Virus record (IMG/VR): IMGVR_UViG_3300037483_000453
Span: 1 to 64,000 of that record
DNA from: a virus
Direction: 5' to 3' (one strand)
DNA length: 64,000 nucleotides
Shown here: in pieces, positions 1-42,050 of the stretch
Layout of the letters: the number at the start of each line of letters is the position of its first letter
Position numbering within the stretch: the first letter of the stretch is position 1
The notes under the pieces: model-generated
Told to the model about the DNA's origin: nothing
The model's input: the letters and a program-made list of their open reading frames with translations, nothing else
Databases searched by the model: none
Made by a program: the position numbers and the translations under genes

Positions 1-75
1 GGTCCTCCCTAGTATTAGGTCCATGGTAGGGTGTATCTAGTGCCATTAAGTGGCTGAGATTAGTGGGTATTCAAA

Positions 76-111
76 GCCGTTACTTACCTCTCCTAGCAGG
101 TAAGTAACGGC
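76..111. repeat. Perfect 14-bp inverted repeat (hairpin) in the non-coding 1-356 region
   Basis: GCCGTTACTTACCT (76-89), 8-nt loop, AGGTAAGTAACGGC (98-111); the arms are exact reverse complements. Confidence 0.9.
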
Positions 112-356
112 ATAAACCAGACGTAAGATCTATGAGGCTACCTTATGTTGATGATCAGCCTCGTTTTACTGGCTTTTTGAGTCTAGGTTGCAGCATAAGC
201 TCGGTTAGCTCGCGGCGAAGCCCGCCAGTTGTGAGTGATCGTCGGAGAAGAATTGTATGAAAGCCTAATGATTTCAATAGGTTCACGTACTTGATCACGC
301 TGTGAACGATCCGTATGTGCGGCCGGTATAACGAGGTTGGGAGAGGGGTACTTTAG

Positions 357-4847: not shown

Positions 4848-5357
4848 ATGGCTGTTGATCTCCGCAAAGGCGCAAAGGCGCGCTTCTGGTCCAAAGTCGA
4901 CAAGAAGGGACCAGATGACTGTTGGTTGTGGCTAGGGGCAACAGACAAGGACGGGTACGGCATTTTTAGGCCTAGCGCATCTGTGTGCTCAGCGAGGGCA
5001 CACAGAGTTTCGCTGCAGCTCGCGCAGGGGTCTCTGAGTGACGATATCCAGGTTCTTCATGAGTGCGACACTCCGGCATGCGTGAACCCATTGCACCTGT
5101 TTGAGGGGACGCACCTAACGAACATGAGAGACAAGGTGGCTAAGGGGCGGCAGGTATCCGGACTACAGGTGCATCCAGATCTGGCACTTCGTGGTGAAGA
5201 GCACCCGCTAACGACATTGACTGAGGAGCAGGTGCGGTCGATACGCACTCGATATGTGCCTAGGAAGGTCCCTTTGAGGGTGTTCGCGACCCAGTACGGG
5301 GTGTCGGAGTCGACGATCAGCAATGTGGTGCGTGGCGTAACTTGGGGGCACATCTGA
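4848..5357 (+). CDS. Free-standing HNH homing endonuclease with C-terminal HTH
   Basis: CWLWLGA..KDGYG, AHRVS, VLHECDTPACVNPLHLFEGTHLTNMRD (HNH_3 type); HTH LTEEQV..IR...YGVSESTI. Confidence 0.92.
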   Translation: MAVDLRKGAKARFWSKVDKKGPDDCWLWLGATDKDGYGIFRPSASVCSARAHRVSLQLAQGSLSDDIQVLHECDTPACVNPLHLFEGTHLTNMRDKVAKGRQVSGLQVHPDLALRGEEHPLTTLTEEQVRSIRTRYVPRKVPLRVFATQYGVSESTISNVVRGVTWGHI

Positions 5358-6010
5358 TGGCCGTGGATTTACAAGTTGTATACCCGCAAATGGCGGTTGT
5401 CCTGAGCAACGTGAAGGTTCTGCCAGGGCCACCTCGGGTTGTGGACGTAACTGGTGCAGACTTCCGGTCTGTGGATGAGGTGCTCATCAACAGGATTGCA
5501 TCAGAAGATGTGGTAGTGCTGAGCAAGACACGTTTAGTCGCACAGGTCCCTGACTCTCTCCTGTCCCATCGAGTACTCTCAGTCACCATCCTCTCACGAC
5601 GACTAACCCTGTCCTCAAAGAGCATGTTGAGATTCAGGCTGAGCAGGACTCCGGGCAAGGTTAGTGGGGTACTTCGCTTGGTGCAGAAGTTTCTGAAGAT
5701 TTTGTTCACCACACCAGGCAGTGATATCTTCAATAGGCAGATAGGCGGTGGCGCTTTGCGCAATGTAGGGGCGACGTTTGGCGTTGAAGAAGGTGGAGAT
5801 GTCATCAACAACTTGGTGATAGCCATCGACACGGCCAGTCGTCAAATCACCGCGCTGCAGAGTCGCAACCCATCATTGCCCCGGTCTGAGAGGCTGTTGT
5901 CCGCTAAGATCCTTCGCGCTAGCTTCAACAAGGAAGAAGGTGCCTTGGACATCGCCGTAGAAATCACCAACCAGTCGGGCGAGGCTGCAATGGCGAACTT
6001 GGAGATCTAA
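5357..6010 (+). CDS. Baseplate protein, gp25/GpW-like C-terminus
   Basis: TGATG coupling with HNH gene; LVQKFLKILFTTPGSD...GGG and ERLLSAKI pattern of gp25-like wedge proteins; directly precedes the baseplate J-like gene. Confidence 0.7.
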   Translation: MAVDLQVVYPQMAVVLSNVKVLPGPPRVVDVTGADFRSVDEVLINRIASEDVVVLSKTRLVAQVPDSLLSHRVLSVTILSRRLTLSSKSMLRFRLSRTPGKVSGVLRLVQKFLKILFTTPGSDIFNRQIGGGALRNVGATFGVEEGGDVINNLVIAIDTASRQITALQSRNPSLPRSERLLSAKILRASFNKEEGALDIAVEITNQSGEAAMANLEI

Positions 6011-31842: not shown

Positions 31843-31866
31843 GAAAGGGGCCGAAGCCCCTTTTCT
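31843..31866. terminator. Bidirectional intrinsic terminator between convergent modules
   Basis: GAAAGGGGC-CGAA-GCCCCTTTTCT, flanked by A- and T-tracts; the + and - operons converge here. Confidence 0.85.
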
Positions 31867-32279
31867 CAGTCCGCCAGCGCGATGATGTCATCGACAAGTT
31901 TGGCGAACTCTTCTGGCCTCTTGGAGGCCGCAACGCGGATGGCAACGGCTGCAATGTGCAGCGCTTGGTCCTGCGCGTCGCGATCGGGGAACTCTTGGGT
32001 ATTCCGGCGTTTGTAGAACTGAGCGAGGCTTAGGCTGTGGTATTCCTCGGGGGATACGGCAACGTAGTGGGTATTACTGTGTAGGTTGCTACAGTGCCCA
32101 CACTGCTGGCACCACCACCACCCTGTGTCGGACTCCCATTCCAGCTTATCTATGGGTGCCTGGCATATACCCAGAGTGTCACTGGCCCACAGAGGGCTCA
32201 TCATACTACTGGGCCTGCCTTGGCCGGCTCTCCAAGGTTCTGTTTGCACTAGATACTGCACGTTGGTTGCGCTGCCCAT
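31866..32279 (-). CDS. Zn-finger hypothetical protein
   Basis: AGGAGG SD; C...CQQCGHC motif. Confidence 0.7.
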   Translation of the reverse strand: MGSATNVQYLVQTEPWRAGQGRPSSMMSPLWASDTLGICQAPIDKLEWESDTGWWWCQQCGHCSNLHSNTHYVAVSPEEYHSLSLAQFYKRRNTQEFPDRDAQDQALHIAAVAIRVAASKRPEEFAKLVDDIIALAD

Positions 32280-32300
32280 GGTCCTCCTGACAGCGTCCCC

Positions 32301-32498
32301 TCAGGGTAGTGCTTGCCTACGTATTAGTTCTCGTAGGCTCTCATCGTCGGCTGTTTCGTGCTCATTGAGCAGGACGCCGAGCTTGCTCGCCAAGGATAGG
32401 AGCTCCTGACGGCTCATGGCCGTCAGAGATGCCTCATCCATGACGATGACATCGTCAGCTTTAGGAAGTTCGCACCCTGGCCAGAGTGCTACCCGGCT
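32301..32498 (-). other. Candidate -1 frameshift extension (65 codons) of 32489-33379, or a separate 46-aa ORF from ATG 32441
   Basis: Open -1 frame from the slippery site GGGAAAA (32504-32498) to TGA 32303-32301; encodes SRVALWPGCELPKADDVIVMDEASLTAMSRQELLSLASKLGVLLNEHETADDESLRELIRRQALP. Confidence 0.55.
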
Positions 32499-33379
32499 TT
32501 TCCCGGTGACACCGTAGCCTCAAACAATGACTCTGGCTCACCGGCCAGGCTGTTCTTGACTGCCAGTGCAGCCAAGGATTGCTTGTCGACTCCCAGCTGG
32601 TTGGAGGTGAGCTCAAGCACTAGAAGCATCAGCATATTCTGTGTGCGTGCCATGCCCAGGGCGATACTCTTGAGTTCGTTGACCTGTGCCAGCAGGCTTG
32701 GCTGCCCCTGGCCTGCGTTACCGGGGTCTCCACTGGTCTGGGGTGCCCGAGTCATCTGTGGCGCAGGGGGAGCGTACTGCTGCTGCGGGGGGGCGATTTG
32801 CGGGGCAGGTGGGGCAGCCTGGGGCATCGGGGGTGCATATTGAGGCGGTGCCTGCGGAACCCCTTGTGGGATGGGCTGCTGCGCATACTGAGGCGGGTGC
32901 TGGAAGCTGGCCTGTGTGTACTGTCGTGGGTCAACAGCTTGCGGGGCAACAGCTTGCTGAGCGTACTGAGGCGCTGGTGGCAGCCCCTGTGCAGCCTGGG
33001 GAGGCGGCGGTGCATGCTGCTGGGGTTGTGGAGCATACTGCTGGGGCTGAGGTGCGTAGGCCATCGGTTGCGGGCTCACAGCTGCGGTTGTCGGGATGTG
33101 GGGGGCTTGTGGTGGCAAGGCCATTGCGGGCTGTTGAGGAGCAGCCTGGGGAGGCGGTGCGTGCCCTGTTTGCGAACCGTTATCACGCAGCTGAAGGGCA
33201 GTTTGCAGTGCATGTACCTGCGTGGCGTCGTCAGCAGCAATGAATGCCTTCTCTTCATCGGACTCATTCGGAAATAGAGCCATGGCAAGGGCGAGATTGT
33301 ATCGCTTGGGGCGAGTGAGGATCTGCAGGCCTGCAGCGTCGCGTGGTGCATTTTCTGGAGTGACTAGAGGTAGGTTCAT
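32489..33379 (-). CDS. P/Q/A/Y-rich low-complexity protein
   Basis: About 150-aa central tract of QQYAPQP-type repeats between helical ends. Confidence 0.75.
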   Translation of the reverse strand: MNLPLVTPENAPRDAAGLQILTRPKRYNLALAMALFPNESDEEKAFIAADDATQVHALQTALQLRDNGSQTGHAPPPQAAPQQPAMALPPQAPHIPTTAAVSPQPMAYAPQPQQYAPQPQQHAPPPPQAAQGLPPAPQYAQQAVAPQAVDPRQYTQASFQHPPQYAQQPIPQGVPQAPPQYAPPMPQAAPPAPQIAPPQQQYAPPAPQMTRAPQTSGDPGNAGQGQPSLLAQVNELKSIALGMARTQNMLMLLVLELTSNQLGVDKQSLAALAVKNSLAGEPESLFEATVSPGKAG

Positions 33380-33382
33380 GCT

Positions 33383-33715
33383 TTATTTCCTGTGCAGTTG
33401 TATGAGGTGCTCATTCTTGGGGTTTCCCACTACACACGACACAACCTGGGTGTCAAGGCACGTGAAGCAGGCTTTAGGATCTTGGGTTCTTAGTGGGCAG
33501 GACACCTGGTTTTGGAGTACCGCCCAGTGACTGAGTACGAAGCCAGCTAATCCATGTCGCCATGAGTCAAAGACATTTGATGAGGCGTCTGGCGTGGGTT
33601 CTTCAATCATGAGTGCTGCAAGTTGGTCCCGCGTCATTGATGGGGTAGCTGGCAGGTTTAACTCACGGCATATCTGATATAGCTCTGTGTGGTTGCAACT
33701 GTTGAATATCGACAT
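33383..33715 (-). CDS. Rho-N/HeH-like N-terminus plus Cys-rich C-terminus
   Basis: TELYQICRELNLP..MTRDQL helix pair; CP...CFTC...C. Confidence 0.55.
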   Translation of the reverse strand: MSIFNSCNHTELYQICRELNLPATPSMTRDQLAALMIEEPTPDASSNVFDSWRHGLAGFVLSHWAVLQNQVSCPLRTQDPKACFTCLDTQVVSCVVGNPKNEHLIQLHRK

Positions 33716-38042: not shown

Positions 38043-41000
38043 CTATTTGGCCTCAGCCCATGAGCGCCCAATGCTACCTGAGACAGCTAGAGGAACAGCT
38101 AGATCGAAGGGGAACGGGTGCTCCATCCACTCCCTAATCTCAGCATCAGCTGCCTTAGCGCATTCAGCAGGTATCTCATGCATCAGTTCGTCATGGACCT
38201 GTAGGCAGGCATAAGCTCCAAAGCGCCTGTCAATGCCGGACTTGTGCAAAAGTACTTGTGCCATCTTTACGACGTCGGCAGCTGACCCCTGAATTTGGGT
38301 ATTCCCAGTGATGTAGACCTTGCCCTGTCGACGCGCTACGAAGAATGTACTGGGCAGGACAGGGCACCAGACCGCACAAGCTGTATTCATCTTGGTGATG
38401 TGCTTTTTCTGAACTTGTACTTTGTCTCGTCTAAGCAGAGTCGCGTAGTAGCACCCGGACGACTTCGGGACGTTCTTCATCTTCTTGGACTTGGGTTTGT
38501 ACTTCCTCATGTCACGGTACTTGCTTGTGGTCGCGTGGCCAGCTAGCGCCGCAAGTATCTGGAACATGCCCGCCGTTGTCTCACTCTTGCAGCAAAACGT
38601 TTGCAGGTTTTGTTGCATGTATAGCGATCCGTCACCGAGCAGCATGGACTCAAGTACTGCTTTTGCACCGCCTCTATTCAAGGACGTCATGAATGCTGGA
38701 GTGAGCTCCCGCTTCGGGAACAAACGAACCAACTTGTCTGCGTACCTCCCAATGAAGTACCAGTACACACATTTTGCACAGTTGACAGAGCGCGAGGTGC
38801 GTATGCCAAGTCGAGCAAGTAGGTTATCGATACGCTTCACGTTTGCTGGGTTTGCTCTCTTGCTTTGGCACAAGCCCACGCGTTGGCTGTGTGTAGGCTT
38901 TTGCTTCTTGCAGATGAACCCATCCGTAAGAAACCAGCCCACTAGCTCCAGGAAATCGAGGTCCTGTTTTCGTCCGCCTTGGTATGTGCCAGTGCGGAAG
39001 ATTCGGTGGTCACCATTTGTAGAGATGGTGTTTGTTCGCTTCTCCTCTGCTTTGCACGTCGTTCTGTTGTAGACCGCCCAACGATGGTCTGGCGTGGTCA
39101 GCGCACTGAACGTTTTGCTCTCGATGGAGACGATTGGCCCAGCATACTCGGGGAATAGCTTTATGTCTGTTGGGTACTCCCATTGCAGTGTTCCTTTCAC
39201 CATATCGAACGCCAGCAGCTTGTCTTTTCTTGTAACAGTATCACCGTGTAACCATCCGCGTGTGGTCAGCGCTTCCGTCTCCATGTCAACGCAGTTAGTT
39301 GCGATGCGCTCACCCTTCATACGTTCATCACGGCGGTAGCTTGCGATCTCCGGTACATTGCGTCGGCGGCCGAGGATAGTGAACGCGTACCCAGTCTGCT
39401 CAGTTTCAGCGACCGCTTCTCTGGTGAACGCGTCGACAGCCGGATAAGCCTTTTTGAACTGCTTGATCTTAGCTTCTGCTTCAGCGCGCGTGATGCCTAG
39501 CCGACTAGCCAGTTTGTCAGGGCCCATGCCGTAGATGATGCCAAAGCCTATATCCTTGGAGGCTGCACGTGCTGCCAGGCACTCACGCTGACGCGCAGTG
39601 TGCTGGTCCTCTGGTGTTTTTTTGGCGGCCTTGATTTCTTCATAGGGCATTCCAAAGATCATGGAGGCGTTGCCCATGTGGATGTCCCAGCCCTTGTTGA
39701 TGACCTCAATCATTCCGGGTTCACCGGACGCAGCGGCTAATAGGCGCATCTCCAACTGTTCATAGTCGATCACACTCAGCCGGTTACCTTCATCAGCTAT
39801 GAAAGCCCCACGTAGCCCCCACTTATCATTTTCGGGTTTCGGTATATTTTGGCAATTTGGATCGCTGCTAGATAAGCGGCCAGTATTGTGCGTCACGATG
39901 CCGCCTGTTACGTGCGACTCGTCCTCATCGATTGTGAGGCCATAGGTAACCCTGTCGTACTCATACTGAATCTCGGTTATGAACGACGTACCAAAGATGG
40001 CCGTGGGCTCTCTACTGAGGTCCCTGTCCCATCTGCGCTTGGCCCAGATGTCCCGAATGGCAGCTTCACTAACGCCGTACTTCTCAGACAACTCGGAAGC
40101 GGAGACACCACTGACCGGCTTAGTCCAAGTCAAGTCCTTCACAATGTTATCGATAGCTTGAAAAGAGACCTGGTATGTACGGGCAAGCTCAGCACGTCCC
40201 GTGCTGCCCAATGCATACTTCTCACGGATTATTTGGGCGACATCGTACGTGAGTTTGGAGGTACTGCTCGGCGGCTGACCACGGCGCTCAACTGCAAGAA
40301 TCTCTTGGACCTGCTCCTTGGTTAGCTTCGGAGCCCCGTTGAGCGTGCCGTGTGCACGTGAGTCAGCCGTGTTGTCCTTAGAGCTACCATACACCAAGTT
40401 GTCCACGGTGTTGTCCCAGGCAATCCCGTTCTTGTGCCTGACCTCTTTGCCAGCCTCTGGGTCGGGAAGGAAGGCACGGGCAACTAGAGCATGAACCCCA
40501 TAGCTCTTTCGAGATGGACCGGTAAGCGTCACTTTCAGGTGACCCCATTTATCCTTCTTTTGAAGAGCTAGAAGGGCGCCCGTGGCTTTCTTACGGACTC
40601 GGCCCCAAGAGGACACTTCATAGTTAGCGTGTTTTGGTACTTCCCTCCACGTCTCTGGGCTAGAGTGGGTGAACAGTACATTTCCTATTTTTAGCTCGTT
40701 AGCAGGGACCCAACCCTGACTGTGCAGAAACCTAGTAAGGTAGGGATGATGTCCATTTGTCCTGAGCTGCAACCCGTTTTCCAGAGTGATTTTAAGTATT
40801 GGAGTCGGCTTGTGCTTCGAGGTCTCAACTACACGGCGCTTCCGGCCGGTGTGTGTGATGACAAGATCGTTGACTCGGACCTCTTCCACTGGGAGGTAAC
40901 CGCGCGAGGTAAGAACGAGCTCGCCGGCTGGGAGACAGCGGGCTACGTCTTGGTTAAACCGTGTGTGAATACGCCCATAGGGGTCAACACGATCACGTAG

Positions 41001-42002
41001 CCCTACGATGTATGTGCCATGCAGCTTGGATAACCCACGGTGGCGCAGGAGCATCTTAGCCATGGGGATCTGGTCCGAATAGTGCTGTAGAAATGACTCA
41101 TCCACAGATGGATTACGCACCCCCGTGGCCCCACCTTTCGACATCTTCCTGGGCGTTACCTGCAGCTTGTCGAAGAAGTACTCACGAAGCTGCTTGGTGC
41201 TCTTGGGGTTTATGACCTTGCCAGCCTCTTTACAGATGGCACGCTCGAGTTCCTCGATTTCCGCGATAGCAGTGGGAGCAATGGACTCCAGATAACCTAA
41301 ATCCACCCGGACACCACGGCGCTCGGTGGCCCAGAGAGCTGAGGTATACGGCACTTCCACTCTGTCAAAGAGGTCCCACAAGGTCTGAATGTTCAATGGG
41401 TGGTCACGGAAGAGGCTATGGGTAGGGGCTCGTTGTAGCTGCGTTCGGAGCTCCTGGTAGATCTGTAGGGTGCCCCACGCATCATTGGCCGCGTACTCAC
41501 ATAGAAGTGGGAAGTTGTTCGCCTCTGCTGTACGGATGAGGTCTGTGGGACTAAAAGCCTTGGTGATCTTCCCGAACGTGTCTTGAAAATCCTGCCACTT
41601 CCAGCCGAACAGGTGCTGGTTCATGTCCTTCAGGCGGTGTGACTGCTCCTCATAGAGGAGGGCGTGCTGCACCTGGGTGTCCACCAACTTGCCTGCTATC
41701 TGCGAGTTGACGTTGGCTAGGATGTGCTTGTCATATTTGGCGTTGGCAAAGAGCCACCTCTTGCTAGGGTCCGCGAATGCCTCAGCAAAATGATGGAGGA
41801 CGGACACGTTGAGTGTCATGCGCCGGGTGCCCCATGCGAGAGACCAGTACAGGGGAACGTCCTTCCAGACAACTAGACCCGTAGTCTCAGTGTCAATGGC
41901 CACCTCGGGGGTTGCTATCACCTCTCGTATGACGGCATCGAGTCCTGGAGAGTTATGGTCGTAGTACTCAGTCGTGGGTGCTTCGATATTCCACTGGGTC
42001 AT
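38043..42002 (-). CDS. polA: Family A DNA polymerase with 3'-5' exonuclease and two inteins (about 637 aa after splicing)
   Basis: IDTETTG (ExoI), TGRLSSSDPNCQNIP, DYEQLEMR (motif A), RAASKDIGFGIIYG (motif B, Phe at the E. coli 762-equivalent), QVHDEL (motif C). Start moved to ATG 42002 after GGAG. Confidence 0.95.
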   Translation of the reverse strand: MTQWNIEAPTTEYYDHNSPGLDAVIREVIATPEVAIDTETTGLVVWKDVPLYWSLAWGTRRMTLNVSVLHHFAEAFADPSKRWLFANAKYDKHILANVNSQIAGKLVDTQVQHALLYEEQSHRLKDMNQHLFGWKWQDFQDTFGKITKAFSPTDLIRTAEANNFPLLCEYAANDAWGTLQIYQELRTQLQRAPTHSLFRDHPLNIQTLWDLFDRVEVPYTSALWATERRGVRVDLGYLESIAPTAIAEIEELERAICKEAGKVINPKSTKQLREYFFDKLQVTPRKMSKGGATGVRNPSVDESFLQHYSDQIPMAKMLLRHRGLSKLHGTYIVGLRDRVDPYGRIHTRFNQDVARCLPAGELVLTSRGYLPVEEVRVNDLVITHTGRKRRVVETSKHKPTPILKITLENGLQLRTNGHHPYLTRFLHSQGWVPANELKIGNVLFTHSSPETWREVPKHANYEVSSWGRVRKKATGALLALQKKDKWGHLKVTLTGPSRKSYGVHALVARAFLPDPEAGKEVRHKNGIAWDNTVDNLVYGSSKDNTADSRAHGTLNGAPKLTKEQVQEILAVERRGQPPSSTSKLTYDVAQIIREKYALGSTGRAELARTYQVSFQAIDNIVKDLTWTKPVSGVSASELSEKYGVSEAAIRDIWAKRRWDRDLSREPTAIFGTSFITEIQYEYDRVTYGLTIDEDESHVTGGIVTHNTGRLSSSDPNCQNIPKPENDKWGLRGAFIADEGNRLSVIDYEQLEMRLLAAASGEPGMIEVINKGWDIHMGNASMIFGMPYEEIKAAKKTPEDQHTARQRECLAARAASKDIGFGIIYGMGPDKLASRLGITRAEAEAKIKQFKKAYPAVDAFTREAVAETEQTGYAFTILGRRRNVPEIASYRRDERMKGERIATNCVDMETEALTTRGWLHGDTVTRKDKLLAFDMVKGTLQWEYPTDIKLFPEYAGPIVSIESKTFSALTTPDHRWAVYNRTTCKAEEKRTNTISTNGDHRIFRTGTYQGGRKQDLDFLELVGWFLTDGFICKKQKPTHSQRVGLCQSKRANPANVKRIDNLLARLGIRTSRSVNCAKCVYWYFIGRYADKLVRLFPKRELTPAFMTSLNRGGAKAVLESMLLGDGSLYMQQNLQTFCCKSETTAGMFQILAALAGHATTSKYRDMRKYKPKSKKMKNVPKSSGCYYATLLRRDKVQVQKKHITKMNTACAVWCPVLPSTFFVARRQGKVYITGNTQIQGSAADVVKMAQVLLHKSGIDRRFGAYACLQVHDELMHEIPAECAKAADAEIREWMEHPFPFDLAVPLAVSGSIGRSWAEAK
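38301..39293 (-). mobile_element. Intein 2 in PolA (LAGLIDADG type, 331 aa)
   Basis: ATN|CVDMETEALTTRGW...LVGWFLTDG...MLLGDGS...YITGN|TQIQGSAAD; removal restores the PolA motif. Confidence 0.92.
39885..40937 (-). mobile_element. Intein 1 in PolA (NUMOD4-HNH endonuclease type, 351 aa)
   Basis: VAR|CLPAGELVLT...TNGHHP...NUMOD4 (WREVP..YEVSSWGRV), HNH (VHALVA..RHKNGIAWDN..NL)...IVTHN|TGRLSS. Confidence 0.92.
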
Positions 42003-42018
42003 GGGGCTCCTAAAGCAA

Positions 42019-42050
42019 CAAGGCGGGTCCACCGGAGTGGACCCGCCTTG
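42019..42050 (-). terminator. 14-bp perfect hairpin between SSB and polA (terminator/attenuator)
   Basis: CAAGGCGGGTCCAC / GTGGACCCGCCTTG; minus-strand loop TCCG (cUNCGg type), followed by TTGCTTT and then the polA SD. Confidence 0.7.

Follow-up and report, generated by a model that had tools for sequence, protein, structure and literature searches.

A probable programmed -1 ribosomal frameshift conserved in an unnamed gene family of a phage recombination module

In Escherichia coli dnaX, ribosomes slip into the -1 frame on the heptamer A_AAA_AAG, with an upstream Shine-Dalgarno (SD) sequence and a downstream hairpin; the shifted frame stops at once, and the frameshift product is the shorter isoform. 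Gene 10A/10B of phage T7 is another case of -1 frameshifting. The major head protein of Lactobacillus phage A2 is also a frameshift case (PMC10885494). Additionally, the heptamer G_GGA_AAG is highly prone to shifting in E. coli, and the g-t gene of halovirus HCTV-1 uses G_GGA_AAC (PMC5009743). As judged from these sources and from general knowledge, nearly all programmed frameshifts known in tailed phages belong to tail chaperone or capsid genes (PMC10885494, PMC5009743). The stretch of DNA analyzed here, hereafter the window, comes from a large uncultured phage and comprises the first 64 kb of the IMG/VR virus record IMGVR_UViG_3300037483_000453 (184.9 kb; completeness 99% according to CheckV). 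An initial annotation of this stretch had proposed a -1 frameshift near the end of a 296-aa gene located among genes of replication and recombination. The analysis of this gene and its relatives presented below argues for a programmed -1 ribosomal frameshift at the heptamer G_GGA_AAA, to which, as a prediction made from sequence, we assign a probability of about 0.88.

The elements of the predicted frameshift cassette in the window are the following.

33379..32489, minus strand: zero-frame gene from the open reading frame (ORF) list, 296 aa, the short isoform
32504-32498, minus strand: slippery heptamer G_GGA_AAA in the X_XXY_YYZ phase (zero-frame codons CCG GGA AAA, 32506-32498)
32491-32489, minus strand: zero-frame stop TAG, two codons 3' of the heptamer
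32498..32301, minus strand: -1 frame extension, an open -1 frame of 65 codons and TGA (32303-32301)
32489-32472, minus strand: candidate stimulatory hairpin GCACUCU-GGCC-AGGGUGC, 7 bp, 8 nt past the heptamer, from the minimum free energy fold
32483-32472, minus strand: codons of a W-P-G-C motif at the start of the extension (W-P-G invariant and C nearly so in 12 aligned loci)

On the minus strand, the 3' end of the zero-frame gene reads ...TCA CCG GGA AAA GCC GGG TAG, and the heptamer was found where the initial annotation had placed it, in phase and two codons before the stop. The -1 frame is shut by a TGA at 32522-32520, seven codons upstream of the site, and is then open for 65 codons up to TGA 32301, which confirms the limits that had been proposed for it. 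After Lys294 of the zero frame, the -1 reading continues SRVALWPGCELPK..., so that the predicted slip junction is ...VSPGK/SRVALWPGCELPK... (i.e. ...VSPGK/SRVALWPGC...) and the predicted long isoform has 359 residues; the earlier computation of this junction and of the two isoform lengths, 296 and 359 aa, was thereby reproduced for the predicted product. The extension occupies the gap ahead of the AGGAGG SD and the ATG (32279) of the next gene. No Rfam family matches in the gap after the zero-frame gene, and no promoter-like or terminator-like site was seen on its coding strand.

In order to judge how unusual this arrangement is, all in-phase X_XXY_YYZ heptamers were counted within 58 crude genes of the window. 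The heptamer at 32504-32498 is the only one of 69 that has a stop no more than 10 codons away together with a -1 extension of at least 40 codons. This unique position, taken together with the conservation in relatives described below, indicates that the arrangement exceeds chance. Moreover, GGA is the rarest Gly codon of the window (13% of Gly) and AAA the rarer Lys codon (30% of Lys). Both codons are therefore disfavoured in this phage, and their constant presence at the site does not reflect codon preference. Elsewhere in the window, the gene at 4848-5357 (plus strand) has an in-phase C_CCT_TTG 26 codons before its stop, followed by a -1 frame that is open for 244 codons and that may just be the overlapping next ORF, 5342-6010.

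Relatives with DNA were collected in several ways. Four were obtained by a word-index search and two more by a metagenome scan, one of the latter ending before the site. Another four (L007, L008, L014 and L015) are distant members of the protein family for which DNA was at hand, and five (L009-L013) were fetched by an IMG/VR scan that used the extension peptide pattern alone. As this last scan is blind to the heptamer, L009-L013 were not selected for a slippery site. IMG/VR scans with the main protein or with alignment A1 gave no confirmed match. An in-phase X_XXY_YYZ site lying 0-3 codons before the stop (TAG, TAA or TGA) is present in 12 of 14 loci, and 11 of these sites are G_GGA_AAN; retention of the heptamer in homologs, a check that the initial annotation had called for, was thus borne out. 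The sites are distributed as follows.

G_GGA_AAA: 10 loci
G_GGA_AAC: 1 locus (L014)
G_GGG_GGA: 1 locus (L010)
No canonical heptamer: 2 loci (L012, L015)

The zero-frame gene and the -1 ORF, whose separation in homologs would have spoken against the proposal, remain linked in all 14 loci. A complete -1 ORF of 58-73 codons can be observed in 13 of them, the contig of L005 stopping 19 codons into the ORF; the corresponding range of extension lengths, 58-73 residues, leaves out the truncated L005 as well as L011, which has a masked stretch in the extension. The close relatives L002, L003 and L005, and also L004 (37% identity), have NNG GGA AAA 1-2 codons before the stop and, apart from the L005 cut at 19 codons, a -1 ORF of 64-65 codons with a conserved peptide. 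In L014, GGG AAA comes immediately after a TGA of the -1 frame, with no start codon further on, which leaves the heptamer as the sole entrance to the -1 frame in that locus. In L010 (2483-2501), G_GGA_AAA is replaced by G_GGG_GGA, a run of six G located three codons before the stop; it is formally slippery and could also serve as a polymerase slippage tract.

The -1 ORF shows the signs of a coding sequence. Among the substitutions in the extension between the window, L002 and L003, those at position 3 of the -1 frame codons number 24, 19 and 24, versus 10, 9 and 8 for position 2. Each pair also has 15-19 synonymously changed codons. The codons of the W-P-G-C motif themselves differ synonymously (CCA/CCC/CCG/CCT, GGG/GGT/GGC and TGC/TGT). 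The best-conserved part of the extension, W-P-G-C-x-L-P-[KR]-x-x-D, begins 5-9 residues past the slip, and in alignment A6 of the extensions the residues W, P, G, P and G are invariant. Overall, the window and its relatives display an in-phase heptamer, a -1 ORF that overlaps the zero-frame end, is coding and has no conserved start, and conservation both of the site and of the linked ORFs, as expected of a canonical -1 frameshift cassette.

Additional evidence comes from the protein ends. A profile search of 1.84 billion representatives delimited a family of 119 representatives at 50% identity, and we surveyed the C-termini of the 96 near-full-length ones (at least 190 aa). In 81 of the 96, the protein ends in Gly-Lys (73) or Gly-Asn (8) followed by 0-3 residues, the background of the G-[KN] dipeptide being 0.4% of the other positions. 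Many representatives matched the profile via the N-terminal domain only, and so this ending was not imposed by the query. The residue before the Gly is variable (E, Q, A, P, S, L, T and others) and could be encoded by an NNG codon in 80 of the 81; residues unable to use such a codon make up 14% of these family proteins. Wherever DNA was at hand, the Gly-Asn endings correspond to G_GGA_AAC, which suggests that conservation acts on the nucleotides and not on the amino acid. The C-terminus of a few members is ..KK; to go by the protein ends only, this would fit an A_AAA_AAN site.

The sequence downstream of the site has a tendency to fold. Both the 8-nt spacer and the hairpin GCACUCU-GGCC-AGGGUGC that the initial annotation had described are present in the window, and a stretch of 111 nt has a folding z-score of -3.07, none of 200 shuffles folding equally well. 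The same hairpin is found in the window, L002 and L005, with the closing U-A pair changed to U-G in L005. In L003 the hairpin contains a mismatch and another stem is available; L004 shows, at the same place, a GC stem of 7-13 bp that is not this hairpin, and the remaining loci have stems of their own with different pairings. Twelve loci were tested, and in each of them the 40 nt past the site are more stable than most windows of the same locus (median, top 14%). The pairings differ and overlap the W-P-G-C codons, and a covariation test would need more loci than these; a stimulatory downstream stem is therefore plausible, although not established. GAGG-like motifs lie 4-13 nt upstream of the site in some loci, where they arise from Glu codons and have no consistent placement, and no SD stimulator of the dnaX type is claimed.

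Several observations weigh against a ribosomal frameshift. L012 and L015 lack a canonical heptamer and yet retain the -1 ORF: L012 (2453-2674) reads CAG AAG AAA GCC TAA, with GAA GAA in the -1 frame, and L015 (2300-2590) has no obvious site apart from a U_UUU tetramer 14 codons ahead of the stop. Either the heptamer is not the only route into the extension or a weaker or different site is used in these two loci. The downstream hairpin, proposed by the initial annotation as part of the signal, is not a single conserved structure, and since in the window it overlaps the conserved Trp-Pro-Gly-Cys codons, the stability may partly be a by-product of a GC-rich coding sequence. The 359-aa product, its ratio to the short form and the role of the hairpin are predictions from sequence, and no RNA run is listed among the sequencing runs that contain this DNA. 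Finally, a search of PMC5009743 found no mention of G_GGA_AAA, which ends in A and not in G, as a shift site.

If the extension were instead a separate 46-aa gene starting at ATG 32441, the heptamer would be a coincidence of a conserved Gly-Lys C-terminus. An ATG is found in the window, L003 and L007, and a gene caller predicts a 45-aa gene in L007. However, no SD precedes ATG 32441; five loci (L002, L004, L009, L012 and L014) lack any ATG, GTG or TTG ahead of the helical domain; and in the loci that do have an ATG, it sits after the conserved W-P-G-C motif, so that in the window the best-conserved stretch, W-P-G-C..L-P..D, lies upstream of ATG 32441 and varies synonymously there. The initial annotation had itself named this start as a possible refutation, which fails because the ATG is not conserved. 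Furthermore, the Gly-Asn endings retain GGGAAAC rather than the amino acid, and a protein constraint does not explain the disfavoured GGA and AAA or the G that precedes them. An independent gene is thus very improbable. Transcriptional slippage, in which the polymerase adds one A or G and the mRNA encodes the same long protein, has in its favour that one base gained in the A4 or G3 run would lead to the same product and that L010 has a run of six G. Known slippage tracts usually comprise 6-9 or more identical bases, whereas the runs here are just A4 and G3, and G_GGA_AAC in L014 cuts the A run to three. Phase is irrelevant to a polymerase, yet all 12 sites are exactly X_XXY_YYZ, with the G as third base of the preceding codon. 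We consider slippage by the polymerase very unlikely.

The remaining explanation is that the true gene is a continuous 359-aa ORF, broken in this record by an assembly or sequencing indel or by gene decay. Single-base errors next to homopolymers do occur in metagenome assemblies. Against this, the frame is broken at one and the same point in 14 assemblies, which stem from different samples and pipelines and whose proteins share as little as ~30% identity. Logan contigs of four public runs were also compared with the region. A 125-kb contig (X2; depth 24.6) from a 2025 soil metagenome of another study covers 32100-32695 without an indel and differs by two substitutions in 596 bases, one being synonymous in the -1 frame and the other changing Glu32 of the extension to Gly, as in L002 and L003; a further contig (X4) spans the heptamer with zero differences. 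The soil contig, together with sediment runs of other studies that contain parts of the region, indicates that near-identical phage DNA occurs in soil and sediment. No in-frame fused homolog was found among the relatives (162-518 aa), and searches for longer fused proteins with A1 (677-2000 aa scanned) and with the extension profile A4 found none either, which is weak evidence. The missing fused homolog and the indel-free independent contig bear on a concern raised by the initial annotation; an indel artefact is not indicated, and the likelihood of one is close to nil. The frameshift proposed at the outset is therefore supported, having survived those of its own refutation tests that were run.

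A programmed -1 frameshift at G_GGA_AAA could operate in the following way. Most ribosomes on the 296-aa gene would terminate at TAG 32491-32489, while a fraction would slip one base back on the heptamer, tRNA-Gly and tRNA-Lys re-pairing from GGA AAA to GGG AAA. The GC-rich hairpin 8 nt downstream would probably assist the slip, and the slipped ribosomes would read 65 further codons in the -1 frame. Such a partial slip would yield the 296-aa and 359-aa isoforms in a fixed ratio. Both isoforms are predicted to hold a Rho-N/SAP-like N-terminal domain, a P/Q-rich linker and a helical C-terminal domain, and the long form alone would add the W-P-G-C..L-P motif and a Rho-N/SAP/HeH-like helix pair. 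This organization follows from an AlphaFold2 (AF2) model built with the main protein and 70 relatives, which consists of an N-domain, a disordered linker and a C-domain, and from a model of the extension; pLDDT is the predicted local distance difference test score.

33352..33164, minus strand: N-terminal domain, residues 10-72, with the motif ..NAPRD...L..L.R..RYRLA...; four helices, AF2 pLDDT >95; alignments A1 and A5
Residues ~73-225, minus strand: P/Q-rich disordered linker, AF2 pLDDT ~45-58
32695..32513, minus strand: C-terminal helical domain, residues 229-289; one long and two short helices, AF2 pLDDT ~94
32435..32316, minus strand: Rho-N/SAP/HeH-like helix pair predicted from AF2, VIA and the ESM Atlas, extension residues 22-61

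The best match of the N-domain in the Protein Data Bank (PDB), as found by VIA-align, is the Rho N-terminal domain 1a62_A (Z 6.5, root-mean-square deviation (rmsd) 2.1 over 48 residues), followed at lower ranks by the CDNF SAP-like, emerin LEM and Ku70 SAP domains. The C-domain has generic coiled-coil or helical matches only, and a feature search of the ESM Atlas with the main protein gave no usable match. The 65-aa extension, modelled by AF2 with five relatives (pLDDT 78.7), shows two short strands around W-P-G-C and then three helices (22-27, 30-39 and 52-61). The top VIA row is again the Rho N-domain (Z 4.9, rmsd 2.0, 43 aligned residues), at a low absolute score, with MANF/CDNF SAP, YqbF, LEM and Ku70 SAP in further rows, and the ESM Atlas returned phage clusters annotated with Rho_N, SAP or DUF669 plus Rho_N (template modelling scores by query 0.51-0.59). 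The fold scores are low because the domains comprise only ~40 residues. None of six extension peptides matches the profiles SAP PF02037, Rho_N PF07498 or HeH PF12949 at E values up to 5, a PDB sequence search with the extension profile gave nothing below E 0.28, and Foldseek against the PDB gave no match for the extension at E <=0.001. The earlier suggestion of a Rho-N/HeH pair in the extension thus fits the model-based fold searches, at low scores, and finds no match among the Pfam profiles; we regard a Rho-N/SAP/HeH-like fold of the extension as a consistent lead, not as proof. With Rho-N/SAP-like folds in both the N-domain and the extension, the long isoform would hold similar small domains at both ends of the linker. 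An internal duplication relating the two was considered, and is not demonstrated, the profile-profile probability being 5.8%.

The gene is the second last, near the end of a leftward operon. In order, the operon encodes a family-A DNA polymerase (with an intein and HNH endonuclease), a RecA/UvsX-like protein, a Holliday-junction resolvase, a Cas4-like exonuclease and RusA, followed by the 110-aa gene, the 296-aa gene and a 137-aa gene. The two immediate neighbours are located as follows.

33715..33383, minus strand: upstream 110-aa gene, whose homolog is N-terminally fused to the frameshift family in some relatives
32279..31866, minus strand: downstream 137-aa gene from the ORF list, with its own SD and ATG

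In BLASTP searches the 110-aa gene matches the N-terminal 130 residues of the family members P0047 (E 8e-16) and P0062 (E 8e-24), and L013 has the same fusion of a 110-aa homolog to the N-terminus of a frameshift-family protein. In view of these three fusions, the 110-aa and 296-aa genes probably act together. By eye, the N-terminus of the 110-aa protein (TELYQICRELNL...TRDQLAALM) is SAP/HeH-like, and four Cys residues follow it. Judged by size and position, a gene of 128-139 aa like the downstream neighbour follows in L002, L003, L004, L007, L008, L014 and L015. The family-A DNA polymerase gene at 38043-42032 (minus strand) contains an intein with NUMOD4 and HNH (Pfam Intein_splicing, HNH_3 and NUMOD4).

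Pfam and PHROG searches with the main protein, with its 70 relatives and with the extension gave nothing relevant, only low-complexity noise. Among the 50,697 cultured-phage records of INPHARED, there was no nucleotide match for the region and no tblastn match for the window protein or for P0014. Membership in the tail assembly chaperones G/GT was considered and rejected, since there is no Pfam or PHROG match and the neighbours are recombination genes, not tail tube or tape measure genes. The mechanism would be classical and the gene family new, which makes this locus a well-supported new example of such recoding.

The role of the added domain is probably the binding of DNA or of partners within the recombination and replication module. 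A more specific possibility, which we consider speculative and rather doubtful, is that the protein is a DNA-tethering scaffold with Rho-N/SAP-like end domains, the slip rate setting the ratio of one-handed to two-handed molecules and thereby controlling the bridging or condensing of phage DNA or partners. A fusion to the 110-aa gene would then add a third handle, and such a scaffold, if true, would give recoding a role outside virion assembly. More generally, the data point to a two-isoform protein in phage DNA metabolism and to the same recoding in a large unnamed family of the recombination/replication operon, with no Pfam, PHROG or cultured-phage member. The loci also form a clean natural series of sites (G_GGA_AAA, G_GGA_AAC and G_GGG_GGA), together with two non-canonical cases, that is suited to probing which sites bacterial ribosomes accept. 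To our knowledge, annotation pipelines join only the frameshifts of tail chaperone and capsid genes, and a conserved domain of 60-70 residues would consequently be left as an unannotated gap in each genome that carries it.

Compared with the known systems, the predicted site most resembles lambda gpG/gpGT (G_GGA_AAG) and the g-t gene of HCTV-1, in which G_GGA_AAN likewise precedes the upstream ORF's stop by a few codons (PMC5009743). As in these two, a C-terminal domain encoded in the -1 frame would be appended to a shared N-terminal part, at a fixed ratio and with conservation across highly divergent phages. Unlike lambda G/GT, the gene belongs to another family and lies in a recombination module (RecA-like, resolvase, Cas4-like and RusA), and the appended domain is Rho-N/SAP-like instead of T. 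With T7 10A/10B and the A2 head protein it shares a -1 shift near the gene end that would extend a fraction of the molecules C-terminally; those are capsid proteins, whereas the present gene lies outside the virion genes and encodes a long disordered linker. In the ESM Atlas, the shape nearest to that of the extension belongs to a phage cluster with 442 members (DUF669 80%, SAP 34%, Rho_N 31%); such DUF669 proteins also have a small Rho_N/SAP-like C-terminal module, although no sequence similarity between the extension and DUF669-type proteins was detected. According to the Pfam annotation, the module of the DUF669 proteins is in frame in the same predicted protein, whereas here it would be reached by a frameshift. 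Finally, the tau/gamma system of dnaX resembles this family in its tandem -1 slip, in its replication-associated gene, in a hairpin a few nucleotides downstream and in isoforms that differ C-terminally; in contrast to dnaX, no consistently placed internal SD is seen upstream of the phage sites, and the predicted frameshift product is the longer isoform.

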